This document shows, in pieces, positions 20,617 to 44,360 of a stretch of DNA of 64,000 nucleotides. Source of the DNA: Strigamia acuminata (lineage: Eukaryota); the NCBI GenBank assembly GCA_949358305.1, contig OX442314.1, forward strand, positions 11,842,001 to 11,906,000, read 5' to 3'. A program made the translations under genes and the position numbers. The notes beneath the pieces are model-generated. The model had not been told where the DNA came from and made no database searches. It saw only the letters and a list, made by a program, of their open reading frames with translations. Positions within the stretch are counted from its first letter, which is position 1. Every line of letters starts with the position of its first letter.

Positions 20617-22890
20617 ATGGCGCTATTAACGCAGATGGCAAGGTCCATAGTCCGATTAGGTCATTGCAATGTTAGCCAATTACAGCTTGGACAACTTCCT
20701 ATTGATTTGCGAGGAAGCAGGCGGCTTTTGCACATTTCCGCAGTCATGGTAAGTTGGAAATAAAAATAAATTAAATTAAATTAAAAAAAAAACAAACGTA
20801 TGCGTGCAATTTCTTTATTTTTGTTTAGGAACAACATCGAATTGAAACCGATACGTTTGGAGAACTCAAAGTCCCTTCGGAAAAATATTATGGAGCTCAA
20901 ACCGTTCGATCTCAGATGAATTTTCCTATCGGAGATGACACGGAACGCATGCCAGTACACATTTAAATTATAAAATATTAAAAACAATTATTAACCAACG
21001 TTTATTTACAGCTGCCAGTCATTAAAGCTTTTGGAATCCTGAAAAAATCAGCGGCATTGGTCAATAAAGAATACGGGTTGGACGCAAAACTTTGTGATGC
21101 GATCTGCAAAGCGGCTGACGAGGTTCAATGATGAACAGAATATTAATTTTAGGGCCGGATTAAGGTTTCGGGGAACCCGGAGCACTTACGACAGGGACCC
21201 CCATGATTATCCAGAAATAACATCTGCAGAAAAAAATGCATTTACAGGCTGAAAAATGCATTTTTTTGAGAAACAAATTGGTTTTGAACCGGAAAAATTG
21301 CATTTGCAGGCTGAAAAATGCATTTTTTGAGAAAGAAATTGCTTTTGAACCGAAAAAATTGCATTTTCATGCAAAACGATGCACTTTTTGGTGATATAAA
21401 TGAATTTTTTAATGTGTACCAGGGAGCCCTTAATCCACTTAATCCGGCCTTGATTAAATTCAAATTACTTAGTTGCAATACTCGCATATTAGGTGATCAG
21501 TGGTGCATTGTACAAAGATCACTTCCCACTCGTGATATGGCAAACGGGGTCCGGCACCCAGAGTAACATGAACGTGAACGAAGTAATCAGCAATAAAGCC
21601 ATCGAAATCATGGGCGGGGAATTGGGGAGTAAAAAACCGGTCCATCCGAACGACCACGTTAATATGAGTCAGGTATTTTCGTAAAAATATAATTAATTAA
21701 TTTGATTTTATTAATTTTTGTTATCTTTCTTAAGAGTTCGAACGACACTTACCCGACCGCCATGCACATAGCCGTGGCTTTGGAAATAAACAATTTATTA
21801 CTACCGAGTCTTAAGAAAATCCACGGCGCTTTGAACCAAAAAGCGATTGATTTCAAGGATATAATTAAGATTGGCCGGACCCACACGCAAGATGCAACAC
21901 CACTCACGTTGGGTCAAGAATTCAGCGGATACGTCACTCAACTCGCGTTTGGAATGGAACGAATACAGGCCACGTTACCTCGCTTGTATTTCCTAGCTGC
22001 TGGTGGAACCGCTGTGGGAACGGGATTAAACACGAGAAAGGGTTTTGCCGAGAAAGTCGCTGCAAAAGTGTCCGAATTAACAGGTTTAATTGGATTTTGT
22101 AGTCGATGACGTATATATTTATTTTTGTTATTTGTTTAGGTTTGCCGTTTAAAACCGCTCCGAACAAATTCGAAGCTTTAGCGAGCAACGATTCAATGGC
22201 GGAAGTGCACGGCGCATTGAACGTGATTGCTTGCAGTATCATGAGAATCGCCAACGATATTCGTTTTCTCGGTTCCGGACCGCGATCTGGGCTCGGAGAA
22301 CTCATTTTACCCGAAAACGAACCGGGCAGTAGCATCATGCCTGGTAAAATGTCGAATTTTTAAAACATTTAAACGAAATTTCAACGAAAAATGATTTTTT
22401 TTTTAGGAAAAGTAAACCCAACCCAATGCGAAGCCATTACTATGGTCGCCTGCCAAGTTATGGGAAACAACGTCGCAGTAACAGTCGGCGCAAGTAACGG
22501 TCACTTCGAATTAAACGTGTTCAAACCAATGATGGTTGCGAACGTGCTTCGGTAAAGGACGAAAAAATCGAACCGAAATCGATAGAATTTTAACCTTTTT
22601 CCTTTTATAGGTCAATTCGATTACTCAGCGACAGCATGGTCTCTTTCACCGACCGATGCGTGGTCGGCATCCAAGCCAATCGCGAAAGAATCGACAAACT
22701 TATGCAAGAATCTCTAATGCTCGTAACTGCCTTAAATCCTCACATCGGCTATGACAAAGCGGCGCAGATCGCAAAAACCGCGCACAAGGAAGGAACGACA
22801 TTGAAGCAGGCGGCGTTGAAACTCGGTCATTTGACCGAAGCGCAATTTGACGAATGGGTCAAACCCGCAGAAATGCTCGGTCCTAAATAA
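20617..22890 (+). CDS. FH: Fumarate hydratase (class II), mitochondrial precursor, multi-exon
   Basis: [70 protein letters not shown]-rich presequence in exon 1. Confidence 0.97.
21150..21452. mobile_element. hAT-like MITE in an FH intron
   Basis: TIRs AGGGCCGGATTAAG / CTTAATCCGGCCTT; near 8-bp TSD ATTAATTT/ATTAAATT; internal AAAATGCATTT repeats. Confidence 0.7.
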
Positions 22891-22992
22891 CTTTTTCTAT
22901 ATTCGAGCGTTTTTAATTAGTCAAAATAATGTGTAAAAATCAAAGATTAAGAGAATAAAACTCCTCATCCCGTACATCGTTCAAAACATCGA

Positions 22993-25718
22993 TTAATAAT
23001 CCCATTTGAAATTCATTTTCAAAAGGTATTTAACGTTGATCTGCGAAACATCGTACACAATGTACTCATTATACGACAAAGACGTATTTGGTACTGTGCT
23101 TTTAACGCCTTGACCCAAAGGAATCTCCACTCCATCCGCATCAACGTATGTGGCAGCCGGATCCGGTTCTATGGCTCCAATACCCTTAGTACTATCTTTT
23201 CCAGCAGGCAATTTAGTATTAAAATCTGCCTCTTTCAACTCGTGCCTAAAAAAATAATACAAAAATCAATAAATTATTTGATTATATGAATAATAATTAA
23301 AACGTACATATTGCCCAACGCAACCTCGCACAACATCATCAGTCCAATCGGATTGGATTTGTCGGTGTAACAGTAGCCGGCACTTTTCGACACCATGTCG
23401 GCGAAATAAACACCTTTGCCGAAGTTGTAACCCGACTAAATAAAGATAAAAGTTAAAAATACGTTCCGGGTTTGTATATAAAACTGTTTAATCTACCGGT
23501 GGCGCTTCCGGTGGAGCGATGCGTAATCCTTGCGACAGTATCCCCGCGTAATTAGTGACGCGAGATCCATGCCATAGCAGTTTGCGGTTATGGAGTTTCT
23601 TAAACGGCTTGTAGCGTTTGTTTTCGCCATGACGGACCACTTTGAACACGTCGATTATCTCCAATCCGTATTTGTTGTGCGTTTTATCGTGAGTGTTCTT
23701 CACGTATTTCTTAATCAAATCAAATTCTTTGGATTTACGATCAAGAACCTGAAATAAAATTTCAAATTAAGCAAAACAAAGAAATATTTTCATTTATTTT
23801 ATTTTTTACTTCAATGTCGGTTTTGAGTTTCTCGTAATGGGCATCGATGGGGTCCTTCGAGCCGTCGTCCACGCCCTGCAGCAAACTGTACGCGACTTCG
23901 ATTTCCAACAAGTTGTCCAACATTTCTATTTTCTGTTTAATAATTTCTTCGTTATCGAGAGAAGTTGGTTTTTTAATGCCAAAATCGTGCGGAATAAGAG
24001 TGTAAAATCTATTAGATGCGTCCAAGAACTTCGAAGCGGGCGCTTTAGTTCGAATCAACTATTAAAAAATAAAATACAAGTTAAATTATATTTCAACGTT
24101 TTAATTAATTAAAAAATCACCTGCAGCAGTTCGGTTAAAATAGAATAAGCCTTTTCGATCTGTTTTCGCGACAATTTACCCAGCGGCATCTTTTTCAAAT
24201 CGATCTAGAAGACAAAAATTAAAAATATACTTAAAATTTACTAATTTACTTCAATCTATACCTCGAATTCCACTAAAGCCTTTTGCATACTTTCTAAGTC
24301 GAATATCATGCGAATTAACTTCTGAATCTGTTGCTTGTGTTTTGATTTGGTGTTTTCAAAATCCTCTTTCAGACGTTTAATTTTCTCGTCATCCTAGACC
24401 GAAAATTTGTTATTAAATGCTCATTAATTGGCAATAAGTTTCCATACTTGCAGGGGCGGATCTAGCTTTTCGGGGGCCCGGGGCTTGCGATTTTTTCGGG
24501 GCCTCTTTCTCAAAATATTTACTAGCAACCGACCTTTTTTTTTTTTTTTAGTACATGGCCCAGAGTCTCGGGGGTCCCAAGGCTCAAACCCCAATAGCCC
24601 GATGCTAGATAAAAAGTTTCCATACTTGGCCATAATCGATATCCACAGGATAAAACTTATACGGGTGCTTGATAAAATGTTTGCGATTTTTCCATTCGTT
24701 TCTCGTTTTTGTTAAATACAACGCTTGAAACGAATTGATGGCATCCTCTCTATCAGTCATTTGCTTGACTTTATTACCGCCAATCGTGGTTCCCACACGA
24801 CCCCACGACTTGAACAACCAAAACCTATTAAAAAATAGACAAAAATTAATGAAAATCGCTCAAAAAACCGAGAAAACAAAATATTTCGACCTATTTTTCT
24901 TGTCTCCTTCCAAAATCTGAAGCTTATAAAACGAATTGGTTCCACGAGATATATCCACCATTCCGAGAATAGCGTTGTAGATTTCGCTACGCTCTTCCAA
25001 AACATGAGCTACGTCTTGTAAACCTATAGAAAATAAAAATAAAACCATTTAAAATCAAGAGTAAATTAATCGAAGAATTAAATTAAATAATCACCTGACG
25101 CTGGATCCACAGCAGCGCTCCATTTAACCGTCATTTTTAACTTCGAAGGCATACTTCTCGTGTACACAGATTCCTTCTCTATAGAATTTAAATTAAAAAA
25201 AGTAATTTAAAAATTTAAAAAGAAATTGTACAATAATATAATGAATTAAATTTGTCCATTTTTTGTCCGCTCCGTAACTGTCCAAAACCTGGTTCTTAAT
25301 CAGTTTTGGTCATCAGAAAGCAAATTTTGATTTTGGTAGATTTCGTGCCAGTTTTGCCAACTTTTGATAAACCAGGTATCTGCTCCCTTTCCACTATTCA
25401 AATCTTATTTCATTTTCACCTTTAGCGCCGCTCTTTTTCGACTTTACTCCTCCTGGAACGTGTTTAGATGAAAAAATTCTGTCCCTTTTAACATATTCAT
25501 ATGTTTTTCTAAATTTAAACAATAAAAATTATAATAAATTGTTTTAAATTGTCAATTTTGTTTAGTTTACAAAAAATTAAATTTTTCCTTCATTTGATCA
25601 GGTACTGTGAACGGTATTCTCTCCGGTTCTTTTGTAACGAAAGTGCATTTGGTCCATCTGGTCATATTACCATGACACCTATATCCCTCGGTCCTTAAAT
25701 TTAAAAAAAATTAATACA

Positions 25719-25750
<32 letters not shown>

Positions 25751-27462
25751 ATGTATATAAAGATATATATATGTATATAAAGTTAAAATAAAAAATTTAC
25801 TATTACTGATAAAATAATTGTCCTCCAGAACATTCTTTGCACCGCTTGGGAACGCCAAACGCCATAGCATCCGCCAAACAATCGAGCATCTAAATTATAA
25901 ATTAAATTTAATAATTTGTTTTATATAATTAATTAATTAATTATTAATTACTCGACTGTTTCCCTTTTGAACTGCTCGTTTATTATGTTTCAACAGCTCT
26001 TGAAGATCTTTCTTTTTCAATTGGTTTTCAAGTTTATCTCGAAAATCAAAAATGATTTTATTTTGCTCCTAAATTAAATATACATATAAAAAAAATTAGT
26101 AGGAATTATCATAATTTATGTAGAATATTCGAGATATCTCACTTTAAGTTGCGTTTCTTCTGCATTGTCCTCTTCTTTGGCTTTTTTACTCTTGGGGCCG
26201 TCTTTGTTAGACTCGGCTACCCGTTTCCTATTGACAAAATGTGAAATTTTAAAACACGAATAAAAAATTATTACCAAAATTTATTAATTACAAGGCGCTT
26301 TTCATCATTGGCAACTTCTTTTTCAAACTGGCTTGATCTCCCGGTTTGAGAGATGAAAAACCAGCAAGTCTAGATTCAGTAGTGTAAAAAATTAATGGAA
26401 AAAATTGTCAAAATCAATTAAATAAACAAATAAATACACGTACACATCAGCAGATCCAAAGAATTCTAAATCTTCACGATTCGAAACGAAGCAGTCCTCG
26501 TGGTACCACAAATCCGCAGGACCAAATCTAGCTGCTTCTCCTTCAAAAGCCTTTTTAGATATTCGTACCAAATCCTATGGTTGGAAAAAAAATATTTTTT
26601 ATTAAAAAAAATTCATTTTTAACTTCAAACGCATTAATTGTACGCAATCTCAGTACAGAATTTACAAAATAGAAAAATTGTAAATATAAAATCAAAGAGT
26701 TTTGCAATTATTTTACCAGAAATTAATTATCACAGATGTTAGAAGAAAAAACATTGTGAAACTCAACTTCCTGGAGAAAAAATAAATTATTTTTTCACAA
26801 AATTTTATTTTTACCTTCGGTATTTTTCTGTTACAACCTCTGCAAAAACTTCGACTAGACTTCGCATATTCGGTAGCAAAATCGCTAAGTCCTTTCTGTG
26901 TGTCGTCTAAACAAAATTTAAACTAACATTTGTTAAAATAAATAAATAAAATTTATTTTTCGATTTTTCTAATTACCAACGGCTTTTTCAATTTTTTCCT
27001 GATCTTCCCATCGCAGTTGATCGACGTGAGCGATATCGCCAACGGTCTTTGGTCGACTGTTTGCAAAAAAACAGTCGAAATGATACCAATTTTGTTTCTA
27101 TGAATTTAAAAAGTGGAATAAAATTAGCACAAAAATCGGATTAAGCATTTTCTAACATTTGCGTACTTTTCCATCAAAGCGCCCACACTTCATTTCATAA
27201 AAAAATAGAATTAGAAAAATACATTCTTAGTCATAAATCTCATCAATTTTAATTACTAACTCACTTGAATCATAATAGCAAGTCTTAACGATGCTAAGGA
27301 TAAAAACAGGCATAAATTCATTAATTCGGCGTCCAACATTTTTGTAGACCATAGGTGGGGACCACTTTTAAACTTACCTTTTTCAATAGCTGCATTACAT
27401 CCTTTACAAGATGCTCTGCTACTTTTCGCATATTCTGCCCGGTATGGAAGGTCGTCAGACAT
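22993..27462 (-). CDS. PARP1: PARP1 paralog A (derived copy lacking BRCT), multi-exon
   Basis: Zn1 ([16 protein letters not shown]), Zn2, Zn3, WGR (SWGRVGT), helical domain ([13 protein letters not shown]) and catalytic H-Y-E (WHGSR, GVYFAD, YNEYIVY) present. No stop or frameshift seen. BRCT exons absent. Confidence 0.9.
24451..24610. mobile_element. Truncated MITE in a PARP1-A intron
   Basis: CAGGGGCGGATCTAGC...GCTAGAT partial TIRs; absent from PARP1-B; flanked by a 15-bp duplication AAGTTTCCATACTTG. Confidence 0.7.
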
Positions 27463-27600
27463 GATTTAATAAATAATAAATAGGCCCAGAAATACAGCAC
27501 ACTTTACTCGACGGCCCCACTTCAGATTTAAGGCGGGAAAGAAGTGAATGAAAGCGCATGCGCGACAGAATTGAAAACTGAAAAGCTGAATCCCGCAAAC
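27463..27600 (-). promoter_or_regulatory. PARP1-A proximal promoter candidate (paralogous to 41272-41400)
   Basis: E2F-like GGCGGGAAA (27532-27540) and NRF1-type GCGCATGCGC (27554-27563; also at 41359-41368). Confidence 0.45.
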
Positions 27601-27756
27601 TCGAAAACCTGATCAACCAAGTGATAAACCCACTTGCACAGAAAAAAATAAACAAGAAATTTTATTTTAAAAAACAAGTAAATATCAGTAATGCATGGAA
27701 GCATTACATATTAGACTTCTAAACCCCTTCTATACTTTTCTGTATAGAAACATATC

Positions 27757-30700
27757 TGTTGAGTATTTAATAAATGGTAATCACACATGTTGTGCACAAT
27801 GTTCACTATCACTTTATTGCTGTGGTCAGCCTGAAGGTTAACACTTAAGTGAGTGATGGCTCATCACTAACATGACACGTGGTTTCTACATTCCTCAGTG
27901 ATTGCCACTAGAGGGCGATACATAAAACCTTACTTCAATACATAACAATATTCCCCCCTTATAATGAATAAAAATGTCACAATATATAAGTTTCAATGTT
28001 TCATAAATTCAGTCTATCTGGTCCTTTTAATAACTCCCTCGGGCGCAAACCCTCGCGCCTCGGTGCACCAACATTTGGGTTGTTTTGGATGTTATCATTT
28101 ACTCGGTGTTCCGTCACATCCCCAACCGGTTCCGGCACTTGATCCTCTTCGATCTCGACAATCTCCACATCCGATGTCCCCTGCTCCAAATCTATATCGT
28201 GATCCTCAATGTCGGTCCGGCCATCCCCACAAGTCCGCGTTGCTCCGTCGCTGGATATCTCGCGATCCAGACGCATCTGATCGACGTGAACCGTTCTGGA
28301 AACCGCACCGACGTCTACAATATACGTCCTTGAACTCTGCACAGAACTAACGATTCCGCGCACCCATTCTGGGCCGCGTGTGTGATGTCTTTTTATCCAT
28401 ACCGCCTGGCCGACCTCAAAGGTACGGGCACAACGTCCGGTCTGCGCATTATGGATCTTGTCCAACCGTTCGTGGACGTGACGTCTCATATTCGGCCTCA
28501 CCAACGAAAACCGTGTTCGCATGTTCCTACAAATAAACAATTCCGCAGGAGTCTTACCCGTTATTGCATGCGGAGTGTTTCGGTATCGCAATAAGAATCT
28601 CGTAATTTTGTGACTCGTAGTCGTATTGTCCTTCTCATCGGTCATCATACGCTCAAGCGACTCCTTAAACGTTCGCACAGCCCTCTCGGCAGCACCGTTA
28701 GAGGCGGGATGGTATGCCGGCACCAACGTCTGCTTAATTCCATTAAGCGCCAAAAACGTCGCAAATTCTACAGAAGAAAACTGAGGACCATTGTCCGACA
28801 CCAACTCGACCGGCACTCCAAAATCCGCGAACTTCCACCGTAACACCTCTATAGTCCGCTCAGATGTAGTTGTGGTCATCGGAATAACGTCAATCCACTT
28901 CGAAAAGCTATCATAAATAATCAAATAATGTATTTTCCGCAATTCGGCAAAGTCAATATGTATGCGCTCATATGGGCCAGATGGCCACGACCATGATCTG
29001 AAGGGCGCCTCCGGAGGATCAGCTTGGCACTGCTGGCATGCATGACATTTCCTCGCAACGCTCTCTATCTCCGCGTCCAAACCCGGCCACCACACGTACG
29101 CGCGCGCAATCGACTTCATTTTCACCATCCCCGAATGCGTATCGTGCAATAAATCCAAAATGTGCGGACGATATTTAGTCGGAATCACCACACGCATTCC
29201 CCATACAATACATCCGTCATCGATAGATAATTCCTCTCGCCGACGTGAAAACGGCATAATGTCCGGATCCTTCACATCACTCGGCCAACCATCCCCAAGA
29301 TAACGCAAAACCGATCCCAACACCCTATCGTTCCTCGTAGCGGCACCAATATTCTTCGCCACGATCGGCATCTCATCGATGAACGACAACTTAAATATGT
29401 GCGATTCCACACCAACGACGCCATCCAGTATCGGCATGCGGGATAAAACGTCCGCATTCACATTTTCACACCCGCGCTTGTATTCGATTTTATACCTAAA
29501 TGTAGACAATAATAATGCCCATCGGCGAATACGCTCAGCAGCCAACGTCGGGATTCCCCGCTTGTCACCAAATATTGCCACCAAAGGAAGATGGTCGGTT
29601 ACCAAAGTAAATTCTCTCCCGACGAGGTACTGATAAAACTTTTGCACGCCGCAGACAATTGCCAAGGCCTCTCTTTCGCCTTGTGGATAGCCCCGCTGGG
29701 CCGGCGTCAAAGTCTGGGATGAATAACCAATAGGGCGCTCCTCGCCATTTGCCATGATATGCGACAAAATGGCACCAACCCCGACCGGTGATGCGTCGCA
29801 CGTCAAACGAAGCGGTTTGCGAACGTCGTAATGCACTAAAACCGCCTCAGATGTTAAAGCGCTCTTGCATTGCTGAAATGTTCGCTCACATTCCTCGGTC
29901 CATTTCCATTCCACTTTATCCTGCAAAAGACTGTATAAAGGGGTTAATTTAGTTGACAAATCCTTTAAAAATTTACAATAATAGTTCAAAAGTCCCAAGA
30001 AAGAACGCAGTTCAGACACATTGTTCGGTGATGGCACTTTGTTTATCGCATCGACTTTATCAGTCGTAGGATGAATTCCTTCCTTATCTATAATATGTCC
30101 CAAATATTTAATTTTCTTCTGCAAAAACTTGCATTTCTTTCGGTTCAGACAAACATTATATTTTCTAAATCGCTCAAATAACGTTCTCAAAACCGCCAAA
30201 TGTTCACTTCTTGACGGCGCAGTAGTCATGGTATCGTCCTGAAATGCCACAACCCGCTTAACACCTTGAATAATTTGATCGATTGCCCGCTGGAAGATAG
30301 CCGATGCCCCAGCAAATCCGTATACCAAACGTTTGGGGCGCATCAAACCCATATGCGTGTTTAAAGTCAAAATTTCCTGTGCCTGTTTATCAAGCTCGAT
30401 CTGCTCATAAGCGTCCGAGCAATCAACGGAAGAAAATTCCTCCCCTCCGCATAATGTCGCAAAAATGTCCTGTTGGGTAGGCAAAGGATATTGATTAATG
30501 TCCAAGCACGGGTTTACCGTGATCTTAAAATCGCCGCAACATCGCACCGATCCATTTGGTTTTACGACGTTTACCAATGGTGTGGCCCACTCGGAATGCT
30601 CCACACGCTCCCAAATCCCTGCATCTAAATGTCGTTGAATCTGGGCCTCCACTGCCTGTTTTAACGCATATGGCACTGGCCGATGCTTGCAAAATACAGG

Positions 30701-32350
30701 CTTTGCGTCTTTACGTAACTTGATGGTCGCCTTAAAATCCTTTATTGGATCCTTTTTTGGCTCAAATAAACTGGAATAATCTCTTAATAAGTTCTCAACA
30801 GTATCCGGCTGATCAGATTTAATCTCGGTCACCGCAAAAATACTTTTCCAGTCCAAACTCACTTTTTCAATCCAATTTCGACCGAATAATCCCGGGCGAT
30901 CCCCTTTTACCACCACCAACGGCAAAACATATGTCCTTTCCTTATATTTGATTGTGACATCGGTCTGTCCCTCGATCTCCACAATGCCACCGCTATATGA
31001 AAGTAACGTTATCCTGCATGGATTTAATGTCATTAATGGAAAATTCGCTTTAAACCACTTTTCGCCCACAACAGCTACATCCGCCGCGGTATCCAATTCC
31101 ATCTCCATCCGTACACCGGCAATTTCAACAGGAACCATATATTTCTTACAATTTCCGACCTTACCGATCGAGTATACTGGATACAATTCGAACGTTGGCT
31201 GTTCATCATCGCTTTCCGGTCCCCGGGCCTCGATCTTCTTCGCGAATTTTTGTTCGGGTCGAAACGTCTGCCTTTTCTGGCTTACACCTTTGGTTGTCCT
31301 CGATTTACATACTGGGGAAATGTGTCCAATTTTCCCACATGAATGACACGTCGCACCGACGTATTTGCACCTGTCCGCGGAATGTTCGTATCCACAACGA
31401 TAGCACGCCTCCCTGTCTCTATTTTTATCAAATCTTTGCCTTACCGGATGTCTCTCGTCCAATTTACTCACGGTAACGACTGGTGGCACTTTTATTTGCG
31501 TTGAATCTCGATCCACCATCTCCATGGCGGCCGCCGTGTCAACTGCATCAGTCAATTTTAAATCCTTTTTTGACAGTAAACGTTTCTGGATCGTCTCATT
31601 CGCCAAACCGCATACGAATTTATCACGCAATGCGTCGTTCAAAAATGATCCATAGTCACATGTCGACGCCAATCGTCTCAGCTCGACGACGTACTCTGCA
31701 ATCGATTCAACAGTATTTTGATCTCTTTTTAAAAACCTGAACCGCTCCGCGATGATTATTGGAGCTGGTTTGTAATGGTCGGACAACTTCTTAACAATGT
31801 CATCCCACGTCCAATCTTTTGGCTCTGTCGGTTGCATGAGGTTTCTCAGCAACTTATATGCGGTTCGACCCATTACCGCCATTAATGTGGATGACTGTTT
31901 ATCCGCCTTTATCCCGTTAGCCAAGAAAAAATGTTGGAGACGCTCCAAATATAAGCAGAATTCTTCTTTCGTTTCATCGAACTCGCCAATTTCACCAATA
32001 ATCGACATTTCTACTCACGTGAATCACCAACGTCCTTGCGAAGGTCGCGACAAACACAAATGGCGCACTCACGCAAAGTTGTTCACTCAATTTATTGTGT
32101 ACACGAGAGAGCACAAAAGCTCATACACCACACAAAATTTATCCTATTCTCGTCGCCATTGTTGAGTATTTAATAAATGGTAATCACACATGTTGTGCAC
32201 AATGTTCACTATCACTTTATTGCTGTGGTCAGCCTGAAGGTTAACACTTAAGTGAGTGATGGCTCATCACTAACATGACACGTGGTTTCTACATTCCTCA
32301 GTGATTGCCACTAGAGGGCGATACATAAAACCTTACTTCAATACATAACA
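27757..32350 (-). mobile_element. Full-length Ty3/gypsy LTR retrotransposon (Mag-like)
   Basis: Two identical 191-bp TG..CA LTRs (27757-27947, 32160-32350); 5-bp TSD ATATC; PBS TGGCGACGAG (tRNA-Ser type); polypurine tract next to the 3' LTR. Confidence 0.97.
28001..32008 (-). CDS. Gag-Pol polyprotein (1335 aa)
   Basis: Two CCHC knuckles, protease LDTAA, RT (FQDD), RNase H (CDAS, EREAL), integrase HHCC plus D-D-E; uninterrupted ORF. Confidence 0.96.
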   Translation of the reverse strand: MSIIGEIGEFDETKEEFCLYLERLQHFFLANGIKADKQSSTLMAVMGRTAYKLLRNLMQPTEPKDWTWDDIVKKLSDHYKPAPIIIAERFRFLKRDQNTVESIAEYVVELRRLASTCDYGSFLNDALRDKFVCGLANETIQKRLLSKKDLKLTDAVDTAAAMEMVDRDSTQIKVPPVVTVSKLDERHPVRQRFDKNRDREACYRCGYEHSADRCKYVGATCHSCGKIGHISPVCKSRTTKGVSQKRQTFRPEQKFAKKIEARGPESDDEQPTFELYPVYSIGKVGNCKKYMVPVEIAGVRMEMELDTAADVAVVGEKWFKANFPLMTLNPCRITLLSYSGGIVEIEGQTDVTIKYKERTYVLPLVVVKGDRPGLFGRNWIEKVSLDWKSIFAVTEIKSDQPDTVENLLRDYSSLFEPKKDPIKDFKATIKLRKDAKPVFCKHRPVPYALKQAVEAQIQRHLDAGIWERVEHSEWATPLVNVVKPNGSVRCCGDFKITVNPCLDINQYPLPTQQDIFATLCGGEEFSSVDCSDAYEQIELDKQAQEILTLNTHMGLMRPKRLVYGFAGASAIFQRAIDQIIQGVKRVVAFQDDTMTTAPSRSEHLAVLRTLFERFRKYNVCLNRKKCKFLQKKIKYLGHIIDKEGIHPTTDKVDAINKVPSPNNVSELRSFLGLLNYYCKFLKDLSTKLTPLYSLLQDKVEWKWTEECERTFQQCKSALTSEAVLVHYDVRKPLRLTCDASPVGVGAILSHIMANGEERPIGYSSQTLTPAQRGYPQGEREALAIVCGVQKFYQYLVGREFTLVTDHLPLVAIFGDKRGIPTLAAERIRRWALLLSTFRYKIEYKRGCENVNADVLSRMPILDGVVGVESHIFKLSFIDEMPIVAKNIGAATRNDRVLGSVLRYLGDGWPSDVKDPDIMPFSRRREELSIDDGCIVWGMRVVIPTKYRPHILDLLHDTHSGMVKMKSIARAYVWWPGLDAEIESVARKCHACQQCQADPPEAPFRSWSWPSGPYERIHIDFAELRKIHYLIIYDSFSKWIDVIPMTTTTSERTIEVLRWKFADFGVPVELVSDNGPQFSSVEFATFLALNGIKQTLVPAYHPASNGAAERAVRTFKESLERMMTDEKDNTTTSHKITRFLLRYRNTPHAITGKTPAELFICRNMRTRFSLVRPNMRRHVHERLDKIHNAQTGRCARTFEVGQAVWIKRHHTRGPEWVRGIVSSVQSSRTYIVDVGAVSRTVHVDQMRLDREISSDGATRTCGDGRTDIEDHDIDLEQGTSDVEIVEIEEDQVPEPVGDVTEHRVNDNIQNNPNVGAPRREGLRPRELLKGPDRLNL

Positions 32351-33228
32351 ATATCTGTCTCTAAATTAAACACCAAAATAAAAGAAAATGTTGAGTCGAT
32401 TCTTTTTATTCGTTTTATTCAATTTAGACATTTAAAATAGATAATAATTCAGATTCATTTAAATGAATTTTTTATGAAATTTATTTCTTTATTATTTAAT
32501 TTATTTATTTAATTACAAAACAGGAAGTAGAAATATTACATTTCCGGTTTGACAGGAAGTGCGGAAAGACGGACAGACGGACATGACCGTTTTATTATTA
32601 TTATTATTATTAGACTTTCTAAACATAGAACATAGGAGTCTAAAAAAACGGAAAAAAAAAAACAGAAACTTAAAATAATTTTAATTTAGGTTGGACACAC
32701 CACAATCTTACGGTAAAATATGTATTTATTTTCCTCGGTACAGTCCGCCAGAGGAGTACAGTGGCGGCAAAATTACGTTCTTCATATTTGTAAATTAGGG
32801 TTATTTATTTCCATTTCATACAAATAGTTCTATCTTGCAGCAGTATTTTTAGGAGCTAGGAAATTCCTTCTGACTAATAAGTTTGGAATAAGTGACAGTT
32901 GTCAGTTTCGCAGTGGATATTTGATTCAGTTGAGTTTCTATATTGCCGTATTCATTTTTAAATTGTATGAAATTTACATATCACAATTTTTCCCATACAT
33001 ATCACGAGTCAATAAGTGCCCAATTCCCATCACATTAATAAATCCAGTTAAGGTCAGGTTCGCGGGGGGGGGGGGAAGGGTCGAGGGGGGGCGCTAGCCC
33101 CACTTGTTACGAACAAAAAAAAAAATACTCGTCATTATCATTAACAGCAAGAACAATGAAAATTCGGATGATCGGTAGTGACGATTCGCCCGTAAAGTGT
33201 AGTTCTACCGTGATTTCTTCACTCAGAA

Positions 33229-34215
33229 ATGGAAAAACTTTCAGGAACATTCGCTCGCTTTCAGGAAAATCTAAAAGCCGCGAACTCGTGTCCCAGCTTG
33301 ATGAAAATATCATTATTAACTCTCGCAATTTCATTTTGGCGAAAAGATGCGGTTAGATTGAAAATAGGGAATTATTTAGGAAGAAATGTCGTGGGAACGA
33401 CAGGAAATAAAAAATAATAATCAAAGGGTTAAAGGTATAAATAAACCACTGTACTCAGACAGGGGTTGGGTAAAGGAGTGTTGGAACAAGGACACTCATT
33501 TGAGCAGCAGCAAATGCCTAAGGGCATAGACAACAAAAATCATTTATCGGAAAGGCAATTGGAATGGACATTTGATGAGCACTACTTGAACTTGGATTTT
33601 TGTGACATGCAGATATTAGAGTGTTTACTGTGGTCAAACAGATGTTGGAATGAGTGTTTTTATTCAAGTTTGATCGATGTGCTTGATTTTATTGATACAC
33701 TGCATCGTTCCGTGGAGTATTTTGTAAGGATGTTAGTTGAGATTTTCCGGAGTGGTCTTTCTAGTTACCCAAAAAAAAAGTTTTTCGAAAAATTGTGGTA
33801 CAGTCTTTCCAGCGATAAAAAACTGTCTATATTCAAGTATAAGTTTACCATAATGGATCTGTTTAACTATCAGGATCTTGATTTTCTTAAGATGCTGATG
33901 AAAAGTGCGGATGAAGAGATGAAATTGGATTTTTTGGTGTCCAAAAGATCTACCTGCGTGTTAATGGTTGTGAATGATGGAGGAGCCGTGTTGGATGAGT
34001 TTCTGCGTGAAATTTTCCAAAGTGATGGCATCTTGCGACGTTTTAAGCAACATGTTTGTGATTTTGGGATTGAATACCTCAGAAAATTAACTGAGGATGA
34101 ATACGAATCTGATTCAGACGATGGCAATCCACTAACTGAAGAAAGGATTTTTAAAACTGATTTATCGTCTATTGAATTGCTAGAAGGTAAACTTATGGCT
34201 TTTTGCAATCATTAA
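33229..34215 (+). pseudogene. Disrupted copy of the BC-box-like gene family (partner of PARP1-A)
   Basis: Near-identical to 41777-43255, but ~640 bp of coding sequence is replaced by a 149-bp insert that brings a stop. Confidence 0.85.
33387..33535. mobile_element. Possible solo LTR (149 bp)
   Basis: TGTCGT...ACAACA inverted termini; contains TATAAATAAA; absent from the paralog; no clear TSD. Confidence 0.5.
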
Positions 34216-34707
34216 GCATTGGAAGAAAACTATTCAATGGTGAGTTGTGTTGGAAGCTTCAACAACTGAAATAATAATTAATATTTTTTCTTCTTCAAGC
34301 ATTTTGTATAAGTTTATTGATGTTAAGAAAATTTGATTTTTATATAGTTGTTGCTGAAAATTGCGCATTTACTATTAACATTGATATTAAAATAAAACAA
34401 ATACTAAATTTAATGAAAAAGCAAGGGCAAAAATTAAACAAACACACGTGACACATCACAACAATGCCACTTTGTCAGTGAAATGATAAAAGGTAAATCC
34501 AGTCAGACTCCGCCATATCAGTTTTTCCTTCAGAATCATCATCATCGAATCTCTGAATTCACGGACAAGCTAGACCGAGAATTACACACAAAATCGGAAA
34601 AATTGAGAAATTATAAACTTAAAATAATTTTACTTTAGGTTGGATAAGTCGCCAACTTTCTGTAAAATAAATATTTAGTTTCTTCGGATGCTGGCTATTG
34701 TGGGTCC

Positions 34708-35993
34708 GGGGTTGGACCTATTCCGCCCCGCCCAAAACCGCCACTTGGTCCATTTCCGCCCCATCCCGATTCCGCGGCGAATTTTTCTATTTAAATTAAA
34801 TAAAAATTATTTAAATAAAAATAAAATATAATAAAATTTCGCAGAGCCCAATTCCGCCTAAACACATTGCGGAGTGGAATTGGGACTGGGCGGAATTGGG
34901 ACTGGGGCGGAATTGGGACGAGCGGATTTGGATTGCATCAAGGCAGAGCCCAATTCCGCCTAAATACATTGCGGGGCGGAATTGGTTTACAACTACCCGA
35001 ACTGGATCGCTCGGACGGAGTGTCGAATAAAACAGTGTACGATCACAAAATCACCGAAAATTCAACTTACTCGCCGATCGTCGAAGAGAACGTTGCGGAT
35101 CGTTGTTTGGAGTTCGCGTCCAAGATTTATTTGGGCTCGGCGGCGACGGCGTTTAATTGTCGCGGGACGAGCGTGCACACTACGAAAACGCCGGATAAGT
35201 GGCGCGAGCGAGAGTCGATGTTGCTGGCCGACCAGCTCGGTGACTTGGACGGCGTTGCACCGTGTTCGTCGTCGCCCAAAGCCGTTTACAATGGGATACA
35301 GCCGTACAAGTTCTATCAGGATGCTCCACGACTGCCAAGTGATCCGACAAGTCGACTGCAAATTAATCGCGTGCAAACTGAGTGGCGGTATCATCGTTTT
35401 GTTCGACCAACACGCGGTGCACGAACGAATCCGACTAGAACAACTCCAAGCCGAGATGGACTTTCTTTTTAAGCGAGGACGATTTGGTCAACGTGAAACG
35501 CCGTTCGCTCAATCCGCCGATGAAATTCTCCAGTTCGGGTCGTTGTAAACGTTCTGTGGCTCTCTCTTCGGTATTTTCTGTCTGAGCGATGCAGTTCGGG
35601 TCGGTTTCAACATTTTCCGTCGCGAATTATTTCAACAATGCGGAGAAAGTGCTCTCGAACATTTCGCGACGGCTGCAATTCCAGTGTTAATTCGTTAATT
35701 TGTTTATTCCTGTATGTATTGTTTATTACATAACAGAAATAAAACAAATTTAAGGCATCAAATATTTTGGAGTGGAATTGGAACGCGGCGGAATTGGGAC
35801 CGGGGCTGAATTGGGACAGGAGCGGAATTGGGACTGGGGTGGAATTGGAATTGGGCGGAATTGGGAAGGACGGAATTCTGAGGGGCGGAATTGGGACGAG
35901 TGGATTGCATCAGGACAGAATTGCAACCTTTTTTACCAAGAGGGGCGGTTTTGGAACCGGTGGAATTGGTTCTGGCGGAAATGAACCCCGTCC
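34708..35993. mobile_element. Mutator-like non-autonomous TIR element carrying captured gene fragment(s)
   Basis: TSD GTGGGTCC (34700-34707, 35994-36001); degenerate GG-start TIRs sharing TTCCGCC and CCAAAACCGCC-CTTGGT; arrays of GGCGGAATTGG; empty site at ~43701. Confidence 0.75.
34984..35455 (+). pseudogene. MLH3: MLH3 fragment (MutL C-terminal endonuclease motif), frameshifted
   Basis: [10 protein letters not shown] /frameshift/ [35 protein letters not shown] matches the MLH3 [27 protein letters not shown] segment. Confidence 0.85.
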
Positions 35994-36106
35994 GTGGGTC
36001 CTTAGGTATGGCATGGATTATAAGCTCTGGAGTTCCTAGACCGACAGGTTTGCCGTAATAATTTTTCAATCGTATTAAATAATCTATTTGATTTCTTTAC
36101 ACAGAA

Positions 36107-36350
36107 ATGTACAAAATCCACATAATATATGCCCGTCTTCAAGAAAAGCTGCAGAACGCGAAATCGTGCAACAACTTGGATTTTTTCGCGCTAGATGACG
36201 CCCCGGAAAATCAACTGGAATTTGCACTCAGAAAATGCGAATTGAAAAGTATTTCATGATGGATCTGTTGAACTATGAGGATCTTAATTCTTAAGTTGAT
36301 GAATAGTATGGATGAAGAGATGAAATACAAATTGACTTTGGAGAAAACAT
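36107..36350 (+). pseudogene. Degenerate fragment of the BC-box-like family
   Basis: MYKIHIIYARLQEKLQNAKSC start homologous to 45274; large deletions; ends at the duplication junction. Confidence 0.7.
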
Positions 36351-36454
36351 AACTTTTTCTATACTCGAGTGTTTTTAATTAGTCAAAATAATGTGTAAAA
36401 ATCAAAGATTAACAGAATTAAACTCCTCTTCCCGTAAATCGTTCAAAACATCGA

Positions 36455-39400
36455 TTAATAATCCCATTTGAAATTCATTTTCAAAAGGTATTTCACGTTG
36501 ATCTGCGAAACATCGTACACAATGTACTCATTATACAGCAAAGACGTATTTGGTACTGTGCTTTTAACGCCTTGACCCAAAGGAATCTCCACTCCATCCG
36601 CATCAACGTGTGTGACAGCCGGATCCGGTTCTGTGGTTCCAATACCCTTAGTACTTTGTTTTCCAGCCGGCAATTTAGTAATAAAATCTGCGTTTTTCAA
36701 CTCGTGCCTAAAAAATAACACGAAAATCAATAAATTATTTCATTATATGAATAATAATTAAAACTTACATATTCCCCAATGCAACTTCGCACAACAACAT
36801 CAGTCCGATCGGATTGGATTTGTTGGTGCAACAGTAGTTGGCACTTTTCGACACCATGTCGGCGAAATAAACACCTTTGCCGAACATGTAACCGGTCTAA
36901 ATAAAGATAAAAGTTAAAAATACGTTCCGGGTTTGTATATAAAACTGTTAAATCTACCGATGGCGCTTCCGGTGGAGCGATGCGTAATCCTTGCGACAGT
37001 ATCCCCGCGTAATTAGTGACGCGAGATCCATGCCATAACAGTTTGCGATTGTGGAGTTTCTTAAACGGCTTGTAGCGTTTGTTTTCGCCATGACGGACCA
37101 CTTTGAACACGTCGATAATCTCCAATCCGTATTGGTTGTGCGTTTTAGCGTGAGTGTTCTTCACGTATTTCTTAATCAAATCAAACTCTTTGGATTTACG
37201 ATCAAGAACCTGAAATAAAATTTCACATTAAGCAAAACAAAGAAATATTTTCATTTATTTTATTTTTTACTTCAATGTCGGTTTTGAGTTTCTCGTAATG
37301 AGCATCGATGGGGTCCTTCGAGCCGTCGTCCTCGCCCTGCAGCAAGCTATACGCGACTTCGATTTCCAACAAGTTGTCCAACATTTCGATTTTCTGTTTA
37401 ATAATTTCTTCGTTATCGAGAGAAGTTGGTTTTTTAATGCCAAAATCGTGCGGAATAAGAGTGTAAAATCTATTAGATGCGTCCAAGAACTTCGAAGCGG
37501 GCGCTTTAGTTTGGATCAGCTATTAAAAAATAAAATAAAAGTTAAATTATATTTCAACGTTTTAATTAATTAAAAAATCACCTGCAGCAGTTCGGTTAAA
37601 ATAGAATAAGCCTTTTCGATCTGTTTTCGCGACAATTTACCCAACGGCATCTTTTTCAAATCGATCTAGAAGACAAAATTTAAAAATTATATACCTATAA
37701 AATTTACTAATTTACTTCAATCCATACCTCGAATTCCACTAAAGCCTTTTGCATACTTTCTACGTCGAATATCATGCGAATTAAATTCTGAATCTGTTCC
37801 TCGAGTTTTGATTTGCTGTTTTTAAAATCCTCTTTCAGACGTTTAATTTTCTCGTCATCCTAGACCGAAAAATTGTTATTAAATGCTCATTAATTGTCCA
37901 ACAAGTTTCCATACTTGGCCATAATCGATATCCAAAGGATAAAACCTATTCGGCTGCTTGACAAAATGTTTGCGATTTTTCCATTCATTTCCCGTTTTTT
38001 CTAAATACAACGCTTGAAACGAATCGATGGCATCCTCTCTGTCAGTCATCTGCTCGACTTTATTACCGCCAATCGTGGTTCCCACACGACCCCACGACCT
38101 GAACAACCAATACCTATTTAAAAAGAGACAAAAATTAATGAAAATCGCTCGAAAAACAGAGAAAAAAAATATTTATACCTATTTTTCTTGTCTCCTTCCA
38201 AAATCTGAAGCTTATAAAACGAATTGGTTCCACGAGATATATCCACCATTCCAAGAATAGCGTTGTAGATTTCGCTATGTACTTCCAAAACATGAGCCAC
38301 GTCTTGCAAATCTACAGAAAATAAAAATAAAACCATTTTAAGTCATCAATAAATTAATCGAAGAATTAAATTAAATAATCACCTGACGCTGGATCCACAG
38401 CAGCGCCCCCTTTAACCGTCATTTTTAACGTCGAAGGCATACTCTTCGTGTACACAGATTCCTTCTCTATAAAATTGAAATTAAAAGAATTAATTTAAAA
38501 AAAATATAATTTAACAATAATAAAATGAATTAAATTTGTCAATTTTTTGTCCGCTCCGTAACTGTCCAAAACCTGGTTCTTAATCAGTTTTGGTCATCAG
38601 AAAGCAAATTTTGATTTTGGGAGATTTCGTGCCAGTTTTGCCAACTTTTGATAAACCGGGTATCTGCTCCCTTTCCACTATTCAAATCTCATTCCATTTA
38701 TACCTTTAGCGCCGCTCTTTTTCGACTTCACTCCTCCTGGTTCCTGCACGCGTAAATGGGGCTGTAAAAATTAAATATTATAAATATTTTTCACAAAAAT
38801 TTAATTGACAACTCACATCTGATCCCCAATCACAAATGCTTTTCTCGACGATAAGTAGAATCGCTCCACCATTTTTCACAGAATCAACATAATCTTCAGA
38901 AACGACGTGAACGTCCGCATCTTTCGCTTCTTCGATCTTTTTGCTCATTTTATTCACCTCCGCTGTCAAAATTATCATGATTAACAACAGAAAAACACTT
39001 TTTTACTCAAAAAAATTGATAACTACCTTCATTACTGATCACAGCTGCCACAGTTTTATCGATTTTCGTTACAACTTTTCCTCCGAGAGACTCAATCGTC
39101 TTGACTAATGCTGGTTTTCCTTTGGATAGCTTACCAACAGTCACAAAATTCATGTTAGATAATGGCAAATCGGCGCTAAAAGAAAAGAAATAAAATTATT
39201 TCCCCGTTTATTTACATTATTGTTTACTAATTACGAGGGTGGTTTGCTGCCGGATGACGATGAGGCGACGGCTGCAGATGGAACGTGTTTAGATGAAAAA
39301 ATTCGGTCCCTTTTAACATATTTATATTTTTTTCTAAATTTAAATAATAAAAATTATAATAAATTGCTTCTAAAGTGTCAATTTTGTTTCGTTTACAAGA

Positions 39401-41271
39401 AATCAAATCTTTCCTTCATCTCATCAGGTACTGTGAACGGTTTTCTCTCCGGTTTCTTTGTAACAAAAGTGCATTTGGTCCATTCGGTCATATTACCATG
39501 ACACCTATATCCCTCGGTCCTTAAATTAAAAAAAAATTAATACATTAAAAAAAAATATATGTATAAAATTAAAATAAAAAATTTACTATTACTGATAAAT
39601 TAATTGTCCTCCAGAACATTCTGTGCACGGCTTGGGAACTCCAAACGCCATAGCATCCGCCAAACAATCGAGCATCTAAATTATAAATTAAATTTAATAA
39701 TTTGTGTTATATAATTAATTAATTATTAATTACTCGACTGTCTCCCGATTGAACTACTCGTTTATTATGTTCCAACAGCTCTTGAAGATCTTTCTTTTTC
39801 AATTGGTTTTCAAGTTTATCTCGAAAATCAAAAATGATTTTATTTTGCTTCTAAAATAAATATATATAAAAAATTACTAGTAATTATCATAATTTATGTA
39901 GTACATTCGAGATATCTCACTTTAAGCTGAGTTTCTTCTGCGTTGTCTTCTTCTTTGGCTTTTTTACTCTTGGGGCCGTCTTTGTTAGACTCGGCTACCC
40001 GTTTCCTAGCGACAAAATTTAAAATTTTAAAACCCGAATCAAAAATTATTACCAAAATGTTTAATTACAAGGCGCTTTTCATCATTGGCAACTTCTTTTT
40101 CAAACTGGCTTGATCTTCCGGTTTGAGAGACGAAAAACCAGCAAGTCTAGATTCAGTGGTGTAAAAAATTAATGGAAAAAATTGTCAAAATCAATTAAAT
40201 TAACAAATAAATACACGTACACATCAGCAGATCCAAAGAATTCTAAATCTTCACGATTCGAAACGAAGCAGTCCTCGTGGTACCACAAATCCGCAGGACC
40301 AAATCTAGCTGCTTCTCCTTCAAAATCTTTTTTAGAGATTCGTACCAAGTTCTATGGTTGGAAAAAAATTATTTTTTATTAAAAAAAATTCATTATTAAC
40401 TTCAAACGCATTAAATGTACGCAATCTCAGTACAGAATTTACAAAATAGAAAAATTGTAAATATAAAATCAAAGAGTTTTGCAATTATTTTACCAGAAAT
40501 TAATTATCACAGATGTTAGAAGAAAAAACATTGTGAAACTCAACGTTCTGGAGAAAAAGGCAATTATTTTTTCATAAAATTTTATTTTTACCTTTGTGAT
40601 TTTTTCGTTACAACCTCTGCAAGTACTTCGACTAGATTTCGCATATTCAGTAGCAAAATCGCTCAGCTCTTTCTTCGTTGACAATTGGTTCTTAATAAAC
40701 GACGCACCAGTGTCGTCTGAACAAAATTTAAACAAAAATTAGTTAAAATAAATAAATAAAATTTATTTTTTGATTTTTCAAATTACCAACGGCTTTTTTT
40801 ATTTTTTCCTGATCTTCCCATCGCAGTTGATCGAAGTGAGCGATATCGCCAACGGTCTTTGGTCGACTTTTTGCAAAAAAGCAGTTGAAATGAAACCAAT
40901 TTGGTTGCTATGAATTTAAAAAGTGGAATAAAATTAACACAAAAATCGGATTAAGCATTTTCTAACATTTGCGTACTTTTCCGTCAAAGCGTGAAGACTT
41001 CATTTCATAAAAAAATAGAATTAGAGAAATACATTCTTAGTCATAAATCTCATCAATTTTAATTACTAACTCACTTGGATCATAACAGCAAGTCTTAACG
41101 ATGCTAAGGATAAAAACAGGCATAAATTCATTAATTCGGCGTCCAACATTTTTATAGATCATAGGTGGGACCACCTTTAAACTTACCTTTTTCAATAGCT
41201 GCTTTACATGCTTTACAAGATGCTCTGCCACTTTTCGCATATTCTGCCCGGAATGGAAGGTCGTCAGACAT
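36455..41271 (-). CDS. PARP1: PARP1 paralog B (canonical), multi-exon
   Basis: Zn1-Zn2-Zn3-BRCT ([32 protein letters not shown])-WGR-HD-ART with [28 protein letters not shown]. Confidence 0.95.
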
Positions 41272-41776
41272 GATTTAATATTAAATAGGCCCAGAAATAC
41301 AGCACACTTTACTCGACGGGCCGACTTAAGATTTAAGGCGGCAAAGAAGTGAATGAAAGCGCATGCGCGACGTAATTGAAAACTGAAAACCTGAATCCCG
41401 ATAACTCGAAAACCTGATGAATCAAGTGATAAACCCTCTTGTACAGAAAAAAAAAACATGAAATGTTTTGTTTTAAAAAAGAAAAAGAAAAAGTGCCTCG
41501 AAAAAGCAGAAAATTAAAATAATTTTAATTTAGGTCGGACACACCACCATCTTACGGTAAGAAATGTATTTATTTTCTTCGGTACAGACCGCCAGAGGAG
41601 TACAGTGGCGCCAAAATTACGTTCTTAGGAGCTAGGAAATTCCTTCTGAGCAATAAGTTTGGAATAAGCGACAGTTGTCAGTTTCGCAGAGGATATTTGA
41701 TTCAGTTAAGTTTCTATATTGCCGTATTCATTTTTAAATTCTATGAAATTTACATATTTGATTTCTTCACTCAGAA

Positions 41777-43255: not shown

Positions 43256-43817
43256 GCATTGGAAGAAAATTATTCAATGTGTGTTGTGTTGGAAGCTTCA
43301 ACTACTGAAATAATAATTAATATTTTTTCTTCTTCAAGTATTTTGTGTAAGTTTATTGATGTTAAGAAAACTTGATTTTTATATAGTTGTTACTGAAAAT
43401 TGCGCATTTACTATTAACATTGATATTAAAATAAAACAAATACTAAATTTAATGAAAAAGCAAGGGCAAAAATTAAACAAATACACGCGGCACATCACAA
43501 CAATGCCACTTTGTCAGTGAAATGATAAAATGTAAATCCAGTCAGATTCCGTCATATCGGTTTTTCCTTCACAATCATTATCACCGAATCTCTGAATTCA
43601 CGGTCAAGCTAACCGAGAATTACACATAAAATCAGAAAAATTACATGGAAAAATCAGAAACTTAAAATAATTTTACTTTAGATTGGACAAGTCGCCAACT
43701 GTGGGTCCTTAGGTATGGCATGGATTATAAGCTCTCGAGTTCCTAAACTGACAGGTTTGCCGTAATCATTTTTCAATCATATCGTATTAAATAATCTATT
43801 TGATTTCTTTACACAGA

Positions 43818-44360
43818 AAGGGACAAAATGCACATAATATATGCTCGTCTTCAAGAAAAGCTGCAGAACGCGAAATCGTTCCCTAACTTGGAAAAATTAT
43901 CATTACCGTATTAACAATCGCAATTTTTCGCGCTAGATGACGCCCCGGAAAATCAACTCAGACAAGTATTTCATAATGGATCTGTTGAACTATTAGGATC
44001 TTAATTCTTATGTTGATAAATAGTATGGATGAAGAGAAGAAATACAAATTGATTTTGGAGAAAACATTCACGTGGTTGTTAATAATGGAGGATCCTTGAT
44101 GGAAGACTTAACGATACCCGTGTCGTAAGACTTCATCCGTTTGGAAAATTTCACTCAAAAACTGAGTTTTCGCGTGAAATTTTCCAAAATGATAAAGTCT
44201 TGCGACGTTTTTAGCGAGTGGTTTGTGATTTTGGGATTCAATATATCAGAAATTTAAATCTTCATAAATACGAATGCTCACTGAGGAAAGCTATTTTAAA
44301 ACTGATTTATCTTGTTATGAATCGCTGGAAAAATAAAACTTTTGCTTTTTCCAATCATTA
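43818..44360 (+). pseudogene. Degenerate fragment of the BC-box-like family
   Basis: IYARLQEKLQNAKSFPNL start plus C-terminal similarity (LRRF, FKTDLS); stops and deletions. Confidence 0.7.

Follow-up and report, generated by a model that had tools for sequence, protein, structure and literature searches.

A young, BRCT-less tandem paralogue of PARP1 in the centipede Strigamia acuminata: a near-neutral rate of change with residual constraint

PARP1 is highly conserved and, as a rule, present as one gene. Young asymmetric duplicates and unprocessed pseudogenes are characterized by a tandem origin, one conserved and one fast copy, a ratio of nonsynonymous to synonymous substitution rates (dN/dS, or omega) near 1 and a transposon nearby. 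Here, we describe a 64,000-nucleotide (nt) window of the Strigamia acuminata genome (assembly GCA_949358305.1, contig OX442314.1, positions 11,842,001 to 11,906,000), in which two PARP1 genes, A (27462..22993) and B (41271..36455), stand in tandem, both in minus-strand orientation. Of the two, B is a typical PARP1 member. Copy A resembles the young duplicates in each of the respects listed, but differs from unprocessed pseudogenes in having no disabling mutation in 2568 nt and in showing measurable residual constraint.

Compared with canonical PARP1 (S. maritima, human and rat), A has the same domain order except for BRCT and retains the zinc ligands, F44, W589/G590/R591, the H862-Y896-E988 triad, K903, Y907 and Y986, but BRCT and 11 residues of the Zn1-Zn2 linker are missing from it, and it carries acceptor-site replacements. 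Met890 and Tyr986 are reported to be acceptor-site residues, M890V to cut the activity of human PARP1 more than 200-fold, and the Arg of PARP3 at the 890 position is suggested there as a possible reason for shorter products (PMC6486540). Like human M890V and PARP3, A is altered at position 890; unlike them, it has Asn there, it is a PARP1 paralogue with zinc fingers rather than a PARP3, and it is known from sequence alone. Human PARP1 without BRCT is reported to be as active as the wild type, the domain being non-essential for activity (Altmeyer et al. 2009, PMC2699514), and S499, S507 and S519 are described as the main automodification sites (PMC8249464). As in the engineered BRCT-less human protein, the automodification loop downstream is kept in A, whose deletion differs in being natural, in taking the linker before BRCT as well and in being accompanied by many substitutions. 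Among papers listed by title, none of 2 (out of 3) that mention both PARP and Strigamia dealt with PARP duplicates, and none of 12 (out of 240) on PARP1, duplication or BRCT dealt with PARP1 duplicates of arthropods.

The reading that we prefer, with a probability of about 0.5, is that A, the derived copy of a recent tandem duplication of ~7.7 kb, evolves under purifying selection that is strongly relaxed but not absent, positive selection being undemonstrated. The sequence itself shows the tandem duplication, the two in-frame deletions of A, the uneven change of the copies, the acceptor-site replacements beside a retained H-Y-E triad, and the intact reading frame and splice sites; the relaxed selection is the most likely explanation of this pattern. 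Judged by its sequence, A is a young, lineage-specific, BRCT-less PARP1 paralogue, coding-competent and changing roughly as fast as neutral sequence, with some constraint left.

Gene structure of copy A and the loss of BRCT

In a homologue search covering 5.8 billion proteins, the nearest protein to exon 22 of B was a PARP of S. maritima (P0002, T1IQQ9), with 93% identity over the query exon (among the best 120 of 2052 matches). Using P0002 as a guide, we modelled B by tblastn and the enumeration of GT/AG junctions, and the B exons were transferred to A through a MAFFT alignment (Table 1). The translation of B exon 23 is identical to the S. maritima protein at 43/43 positions. Copy A encodes Zn1, Zn2, Zn3/PADR1, a KS-rich linker, WGR, the helical (regulatory) domain and ART, without BRCT. 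GT..AG borders are kept at all 20 of its introns (40 splice dinucleotides), there are 0 stops in 855 codons, and the lesions expected of a pseudogene (premature stops, frameshifts or lost splice sites) are absent. We infer that A is, or until recently was, a protein-coding gene.

Pfam searches with single A exons matched zf-PARP, PADR1, WGR, PARP_reg and PARP. The Zn1 exon matched PF00645 with E=3e-7 and 31.5 bits, under the 39.3-bit cut-off because the exon holds half of the domain, and the exon for the second half of Zn2 had no match at E<=0.01; the CCHC ligands of both N-terminal zinc fingers are kept (aligned to C21, C24, H53, C56, C125, C128, H159 and C162). Exon 11 matched PF08063 (PADR1; E=3.3e-11, 43.2 bits, cut-off 25.1) and exon 15 matched PF05406 (WGR; E=3.7e-13), with W589, G590 and R591 kept and R587K and G623R changed. 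The helical domain matched PF02877 (E=3.1e-21) and the three ART exons PF00644 (E=2e-29, 2e-17 and 8.9e-18). Of the features used to delimit the PARP1 (ARTD1) orthogroup, A thus has Zn1/Zn2, PADR1, WGR, and the helical and ART domains with the H-Y-E triad; it lacks BRCT, and S, N, G and S stand in place of the conserved T887, M890, N906 and L985. Several arthropod PARP1 entries are likewise without a precomputed BRCT match, and BRCT is not universal in annotation. Both copies contain a micro-exon that restores the canonical spacing of Zn1 and is missing from P0002, the annotation of which probably overlooks it.

The loss of BRCT goes back to a 541-nt genomic deletion in A (B 39281-38741), which fuses the first part of B exon 12 with the last part of B exon 15 and takes out 363 coding nt (121 amino acids) in frame, comprising BRCT and the linker before it. 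The breakpoints share a 3-nt microhomology, CCA. A VKSKKSGAK stretch on the 3' side of the deletion is kept and aligns to the automodification serines 499 and 507 (rat/human); at the position corresponding to 519, all three centipede proteins (A, B and S. maritima) have Met. The product of A would hence keep both automodification serines present in the centipede proteins (aligned 499/507). As BRCT-less human PARP1 is reported to be active, the loss of BRCT alone need not disable A.

Another structural difference is an intronic insertion of a high-copy repeat, over which the contig word depth is 21,000-29,000, compared to ~450-600 in the flanks (run X1), i.e., ~40-60x. One contig of run X2 skips this insertion (joint 24430>24614) and may be derived from B or from an allele without it.

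Assemblies are prone to error where near-identical units lie in tandem, and A and B might be two haplotypes or a wrongly placed (collapsed or expanded) repeat. This is very improbable. In three runs, which come from two studies, the A-specific sequence is covered by DNA contigs in all 30 bins (29/30 in run X3) at a likeness of at least 97%. The two deletions (541 nt and 33 nt), the 177-nt insertion, a 4.6-kb retrotransposon and 5.6% substitutions go far beyond allelic variation, and the units have distinct flanks, with a fumarase exon at the A end only.

Acceptor-site replacements and predicted function

An earlier, sequence-only reading had singled out positions 22993-23720, which lie within the last three coding exons of A on the minus strand, all of them matching PF00644. 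The motif changes that it described are there: A has SGYNFG, SAGYC and SLSYNE, where B has TGYMFG, SANYC and SLLYNE, and the two-base codon changes ACC>TCG, ATG>AAC, AAC>GGC and CTG>TCG amount to T887S (23433-23435), M890N (23424-23426), N906G (23376-23378) and L985S (23074-23076). It was also right that H862, Y896, K903 and E988 are kept, and Y907 and Y986 are kept as well, as judged by alignment to rat PARP1 (P0103), through which residues were numbered and whose residues at 862, 896, 988, 890, 903, 907 and 986 match human numbering. Its counts for the last exon hold as well, with 8 amino-acid and 13 nt differences (11, and 2 in silent-only codons), and EKTGN>TKTRN and KGGAAVDP>KWSAAVDP are found in A. 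That reading had overlooked the in-frame loss of BRCT, the 11-residue deletion in the linker and the retrotransposon 295 nt upstream of A.

The B residues at 887, 890, 906 and 985 occur in 68/68, 68/68, 68/68 and 66/68 full-length orthologues, and the A residues in 0/68; M890, N906 and T887 are thus invariant in 68/68 sequences from insects to mammals. Further changes in A at invariant or nearly invariant sites of the 68 orthologues are S41C, G530S, L665H and R587K. Among 120 related proteins, no variant of the acceptor motifs of the A type was found, including Asn at 890, and a near-length search with the last exon of A gave 3 candidates for an A-type protein elsewhere, none with E<=1e-20. 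Neither an orthologue of A nor a spliced transcript of either copy was present among the best 120 of 2052 protein matches to B exon 22.

With the Zn1/Zn2 ligands, F44 and W589/G590/R591 retained, the product of A would still bind DNA breaks, and it would still bind NAD+ because H862, Y896, Y907 and E988 are kept. However, it may extend poly(ADP-ribose) poorly: chain elongation is probably impaired, since Met890, N906, T887 and L985 (beside Tyr986) are all replaced by residues found in none of the 68 orthologues. On these data such an impairment could reflect either drift or an adaptive switch.

The adaptive version would be a neofunctionalization, in which selection remodelled the acceptor site, Zn1 and WGR and favoured the loss of BRCT, leading to a mono- or oligo-ADP-ribosyl transferase or to a new target. 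We consider this unlikely, although several observations fit it: the four changes fall at invariant or 97% conserved sites of the NAD+/acceptor pocket; the excision of BRCT leaves the reading frame and the KS motifs beyond it intact; PARP3, whose products are short, is also described as lacking Met at 890 (PMC6486540); and the frame and splice sites are intact despite ~115-125 substitutions on branch A. In its strongest form, the spare PARP1 of this geophilomorph centipede would have become a new enzyme, a BRCT-less break sensor with a selected acceptor pocket, adding single or short ADP-ribose units or acting as a muted competitor of B. Should this improbable outcome be true, it would be a natural transition from PARP1 to a 'PARP3-like' enzyme caught within ~5% divergence. 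More generally, A may serve as a small natural mutagenesis experiment on which PARP1 parts serve what, and, provided that its product is made and has activity, it would illustrate a way of retuning a poly-ADP-ribose polymerase.

Residual constraint and selection on copy A

The state of the reading frame bears directly on whether A is an unprocessed pseudogene in early decay, silenced, e.g., by promoter divergence or by a retrotransposon, with its frame open by chance or because its death is recent. We calculated that the B coding sequence would remain free of stops after 60-120 random substitutions with a probability of 0.002-0.06. In the introns, 11 insertion or deletion events in 1669 nt, 10 of which are not multiples of three, compare to 0 frameshifting events in the exons (P=0.0005-0.02), and both exonic deletions of A preserve the frame, for which the chance is 1/9 with random deletions. 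The 80 bases of the splice dinucleotides are all unchanged (P=0.02-0.11). Under neutrality, the absence of stops and frameshifts, the in-frame deletions and the untouched splice dinucleotides are jointly improbable.

Replacements are also depleted at conserved sites. Across the 68 full-length orthologues, they affect 13/257 sites that are at least 90% conserved vs 68/573 elsewhere (Fisher p=0.002), and 6/152 invariant sites vs 75/678 others (p=0.006). Between A and B, the share of replaced codons is 15.2% in the most variable class, 8.6, 9.7 and 6.7% in the classes of rising conservation, and 3.9% in the invariant class. The corresponding gradient between B and S. maritima is far steeper (28, 10.5, 5.2, 1.9 and 0%), although partly circular in the top classes, as P0002 is among the 68 orthologues. 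Pure decay of A is therefore unlikely, given the open frame, the intact splice sites and the fewer changes at conserved sites.

Decay nevertheless has points in its favour: the 13 replacements at sites at least 90% conserved, among them the invariant S41, G530, L665, T887, M890 and N906, the loss of a whole domain, an element with identical long terminal repeats (LTRs) 295 nt upstream, a diverged 5' flank, and the substitution rates set out below. We regard it as doubtful on balance, the depletion at conserved sites and the preserved frame speaking against it; a very recent death of A after a period of constraint would be compatible with the tests. If A is dying, it would illustrate cleanly, and in a form that can be dated, how the loss of a gene begins once it has been duplicated in tandem.

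With respect to divergence, the claim of the sequence-only reading that the introns are nearly identical did not survive. The divergence of A and B is 91/1669 aligned nt (5.45%) in introns and 147/2568 (5.72%) in exons (Fisher p=0.73), and in the span that it had considered the figures are 5/122 and 34/633 (p=0.66). By site class, 84/1661 0-fold sites (5.06%), 18/308 4-fold sites (5.84%) and 28/552 2-fold sites, counting synonymous transitions (5.07%), differ. Exon 20 of A, with 13/128 nt different from B, ranks top among the large exons. A comparison of exon and intron divergence by composition class was rejected as biased, A/T-to-G/C differences swelling the 'GC' class more in the AT-rich introns.

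Of the 82 amino-acid differences between the copies, 58 are assigned to A and 4 to B when the S. maritima protein serves as an outgroup; 18 are ambiguous, and for 2 the outgroup has no residue. A is the derived, accelerated copy: it carries 58/62 polarizable replacements, its protein changing ~15x faster than that of B (relative-rate chi2 47, p=7e-12). These replacements are spread across all A domains. A tract of low divergence differs at 20/769 nt (2.6%) vs 218/3468 (6.3%) elsewhere (Fisher p=2e-5, the tract having been chosen after seeing the data), or 3/184 vs 88/1485 for introns alone (p=0.014); it may reflect gene conversion between A and B. Upstream of the genes, 27463-27674 and 41272-41480 differ at 26/209 nt (12.4%), ~2x the level of introns and exons, and the promoters are more diverged than the genes.

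Pairwise estimates for A and B gave dN of 0.047-0.052, dS of 0.083-0.113 and omega of 0.41-0.63 depending on the method, with dN/dS ranging from 0.43 (NG86) to 0.62 (YN00; bootstrap 95% confidence interval 0.43-0.88). The NG86 dS (0.113) is too high when set against 4-fold sites (5.8%) and introns (5.5%), and NG86 was not used alone. For branch A, dN/dS is ~0.6-1.7 by method, assuming that silent changes split equally between the branches. Against a neutral reference matched for transitions and transversions, the ratio of observed to expected replacements on branch A is 0.97-1.24.

Positive selection on A, which the sequence-only reading had proposed, is therefore not demonstrated: the branch-A dN/dS lies close to 1, exceeding it with some references but not robustly. 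The same reading had named a ratio near 1 together with equal exon and intron divergence as the mark of neutral decay. Both figures were found, as decay would have it, but the open frame, the splice sites and the depletion at conserved sites oppose pure decay. The excess of replacements that it saw in the last exon also dissolved, the 11:2 ratio not differing from the ratio of available sites (N 196 : S 53; Fisher p=0.74). Differences at most 2 nt apart are in excess in exons (28 vs 16.0 expected, p=0.002) and in introns (18 vs 9.4, p=0.005), and 18 codons have at least two differences. Because the clustering excess is equal in introns, the two-base changes look like a mutational feature here rather than a sign of selection. 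Two-base codon changes and raw counts of replacement to silent differences should hence not be taken for positive selection.

Neofunctionalization is weakened by these results, the replacement excess being gone with matched or codon-model references (0.97-1.24; YN00 0.62) and the two-base clustering being equal in introns. Furthermore, replacements are not enriched in the catalytic domain, where the NG86 ratio is 0.45 vs 0.41 gene-wide, with Zn1 highest at 0.74 (domain limits approximate), and where 3/72 invariant ART sites are replaced vs 6/152 overall; changes are instead found in all domains. We also looked at variants of A in runs X1-X3 (40 of 50 rows examined), dropping 26 that carry the B letter and are inseparable from short B-derived contigs, which left 14 non-B-like rows, 10 exonic and 4 non-coding. 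The 10 exonic variants, from run X3 (another individual), comprise 7 non-synonymous and 3 synonymous changes and no stops. This 7:3 is near the site ratio, as expected under decay, and in a McDonald-Kreitman-like table it does not differ from the fixed differences (92:55, p=0.75), a further point against adaptive change.

Several results weigh against strongly relaxed but persisting purifying selection as the explanation of A. The silent split between branches is assumed, not measured, the outgroup being a protein only. Relative to introns plus 4-fold sites, replacement on branch A is 1.34-1.72 times the rate (Poisson p=0.018 to 1e-5), which would favour positive selection and neofunctionalization. 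By conservation class, pairwise YN00 omega is 1.11 in the middle class, compared to 0.29 for conserved and 0.78 for variable sites. When the count is restricted to the 58 changes securely assigned to A, the depletion at conserved sites weakens to p=0.078. In addition, the recent retrotransposon and the 12.4% diverged 5' flank mean that A may now be silent. In run X4 (probably RNA; 19.3 Mb, 61,566 contigs), no contig lies on the A exons at a likeness of at least 97%, which is evidence neither way.

Duplication units, retrotransposon and neighbouring features

The window is of eukaryotic type, with short GT..AG introns and ~35-40% G+C. In a self-comparison, 22887-27674 matches 36349-41480 with 91-95% identity, and upstream of the genes the match resumes between 32657-34657 and 41501-43700 and between 35994-36350 and 43701-44067. 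Since the match resumes upstream of both genes, the original duplication unit is ~7.7 kb, with one PARP1 gene per unit. B and the S. maritima protein differ at 98/823 compared sites, and, because B has changed little since the duplication, we infer that S. acuminata and S. maritima separated long before the duplication took place.

The upstream region of the A unit is split by a retrotransposon of the Ty3/gypsy type, 295 nt upstream of the A ATG, which carries an uninterrupted frame of 1337 amino acids (gag, reverse transcriptase, RNaseH and integrase; 32014..28004). Its insertion looks very recent, and it may still be active.

Table 1. Coordinates of the PARP1 copies, their units and associated features, numbered by position in the window.
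Feature	Position	Strand	Description
A duplication unit	22887..36350		Gene and upstream region; split by the retrotransposon and a 1.3-kb insert (34658-35993)
B duplication unit	36349-44067		Adjoins the A unit
PARP1-A	22993..27462	-	21 coding exons, 2568-nt open frame, 855 amino acids
PARP1-B	36455..41271	-	24 coding exons, 987 amino acids, no stop; conserved copy
A exon 21, last	22993..23245	-	Includes the stop; L985S; Y986 and E988 kept; 8 amino-acid differences from B
A exon 20, 'PARP signature' exon	23308..23435	-	T887S, M890N, N906G, and C>Y, N>D, L>M
A exon 19, first ART exon	23497..23748	-	H862 (LLWHGSR); A>D, Q>K, S>P relative to B; PF00644 E=2e-29
Low-divergence tract	23497..24204 (A) = 36958-37665 (B)	-	B exons 20-22 with three introns; ~0.7 kb
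Intron insertion in A	24433..24609		177 nt, not in B; high-copy repeat resembling a short interspersed nuclear element or miniature inverted-repeat transposable element (SINE/MITE-like)
A exon 12, fusion exon	25420..25508	-	Start of B exon 12 and end of B exon 15; junction 25456/25457
A exon 5	26815..26906	-	In-frame 33-nt deletion, 11 amino acids of the Zn1-Zn2 linker; 14/92 aligned nt differ from B
A micro-exon 3	27167..27187	-	21 nt, CGRFDGK; 5/21 nt differ from B; AG/GT borders
B exons 13-14, BRCT-coding	38817..39175	-	PF00533 E=2.6e-5 on exon 13; no counterpart in A
B micro-exon	40977-40997	-	21 nt, SSRFDGK
Ty3/gypsy-type LTR retrotransposon	27757..32354	-	4.6 kb; 195-nt LTRs 100% identical; within the duplicated upstream region

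The 1.3-kb insert at 34658-35993, found in the A unit only, contains repetitive low-complexity open frames with GIG/NWD-rich translations and is probably a mobile or satellite element. In both units, a divergently oriented open frame lies upstream of the gene, of 317 amino acids in B (42302-43255, +) and 256 in A (33445-34215, +); it has no Pfam match, and the start of the A version is replaced by unrelated sequence.

On the other side of A, a C-terminal exon of a class II fumarase (22702-22888, +; PF10415, E=1e-28) converges on PARP1-A and is present at this end only. The duplication breakpoint at 22887 coincides with the fumarase stop codon, and in run X4 a contig 1,623 nt long stops at 22907, at the fumarase 3' end. 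Finally, a tandem array of ~800 nt with a 21-nt period occupies 11408-12205, where 26 overlapping 273-nt copies are spaced by 21 nt.

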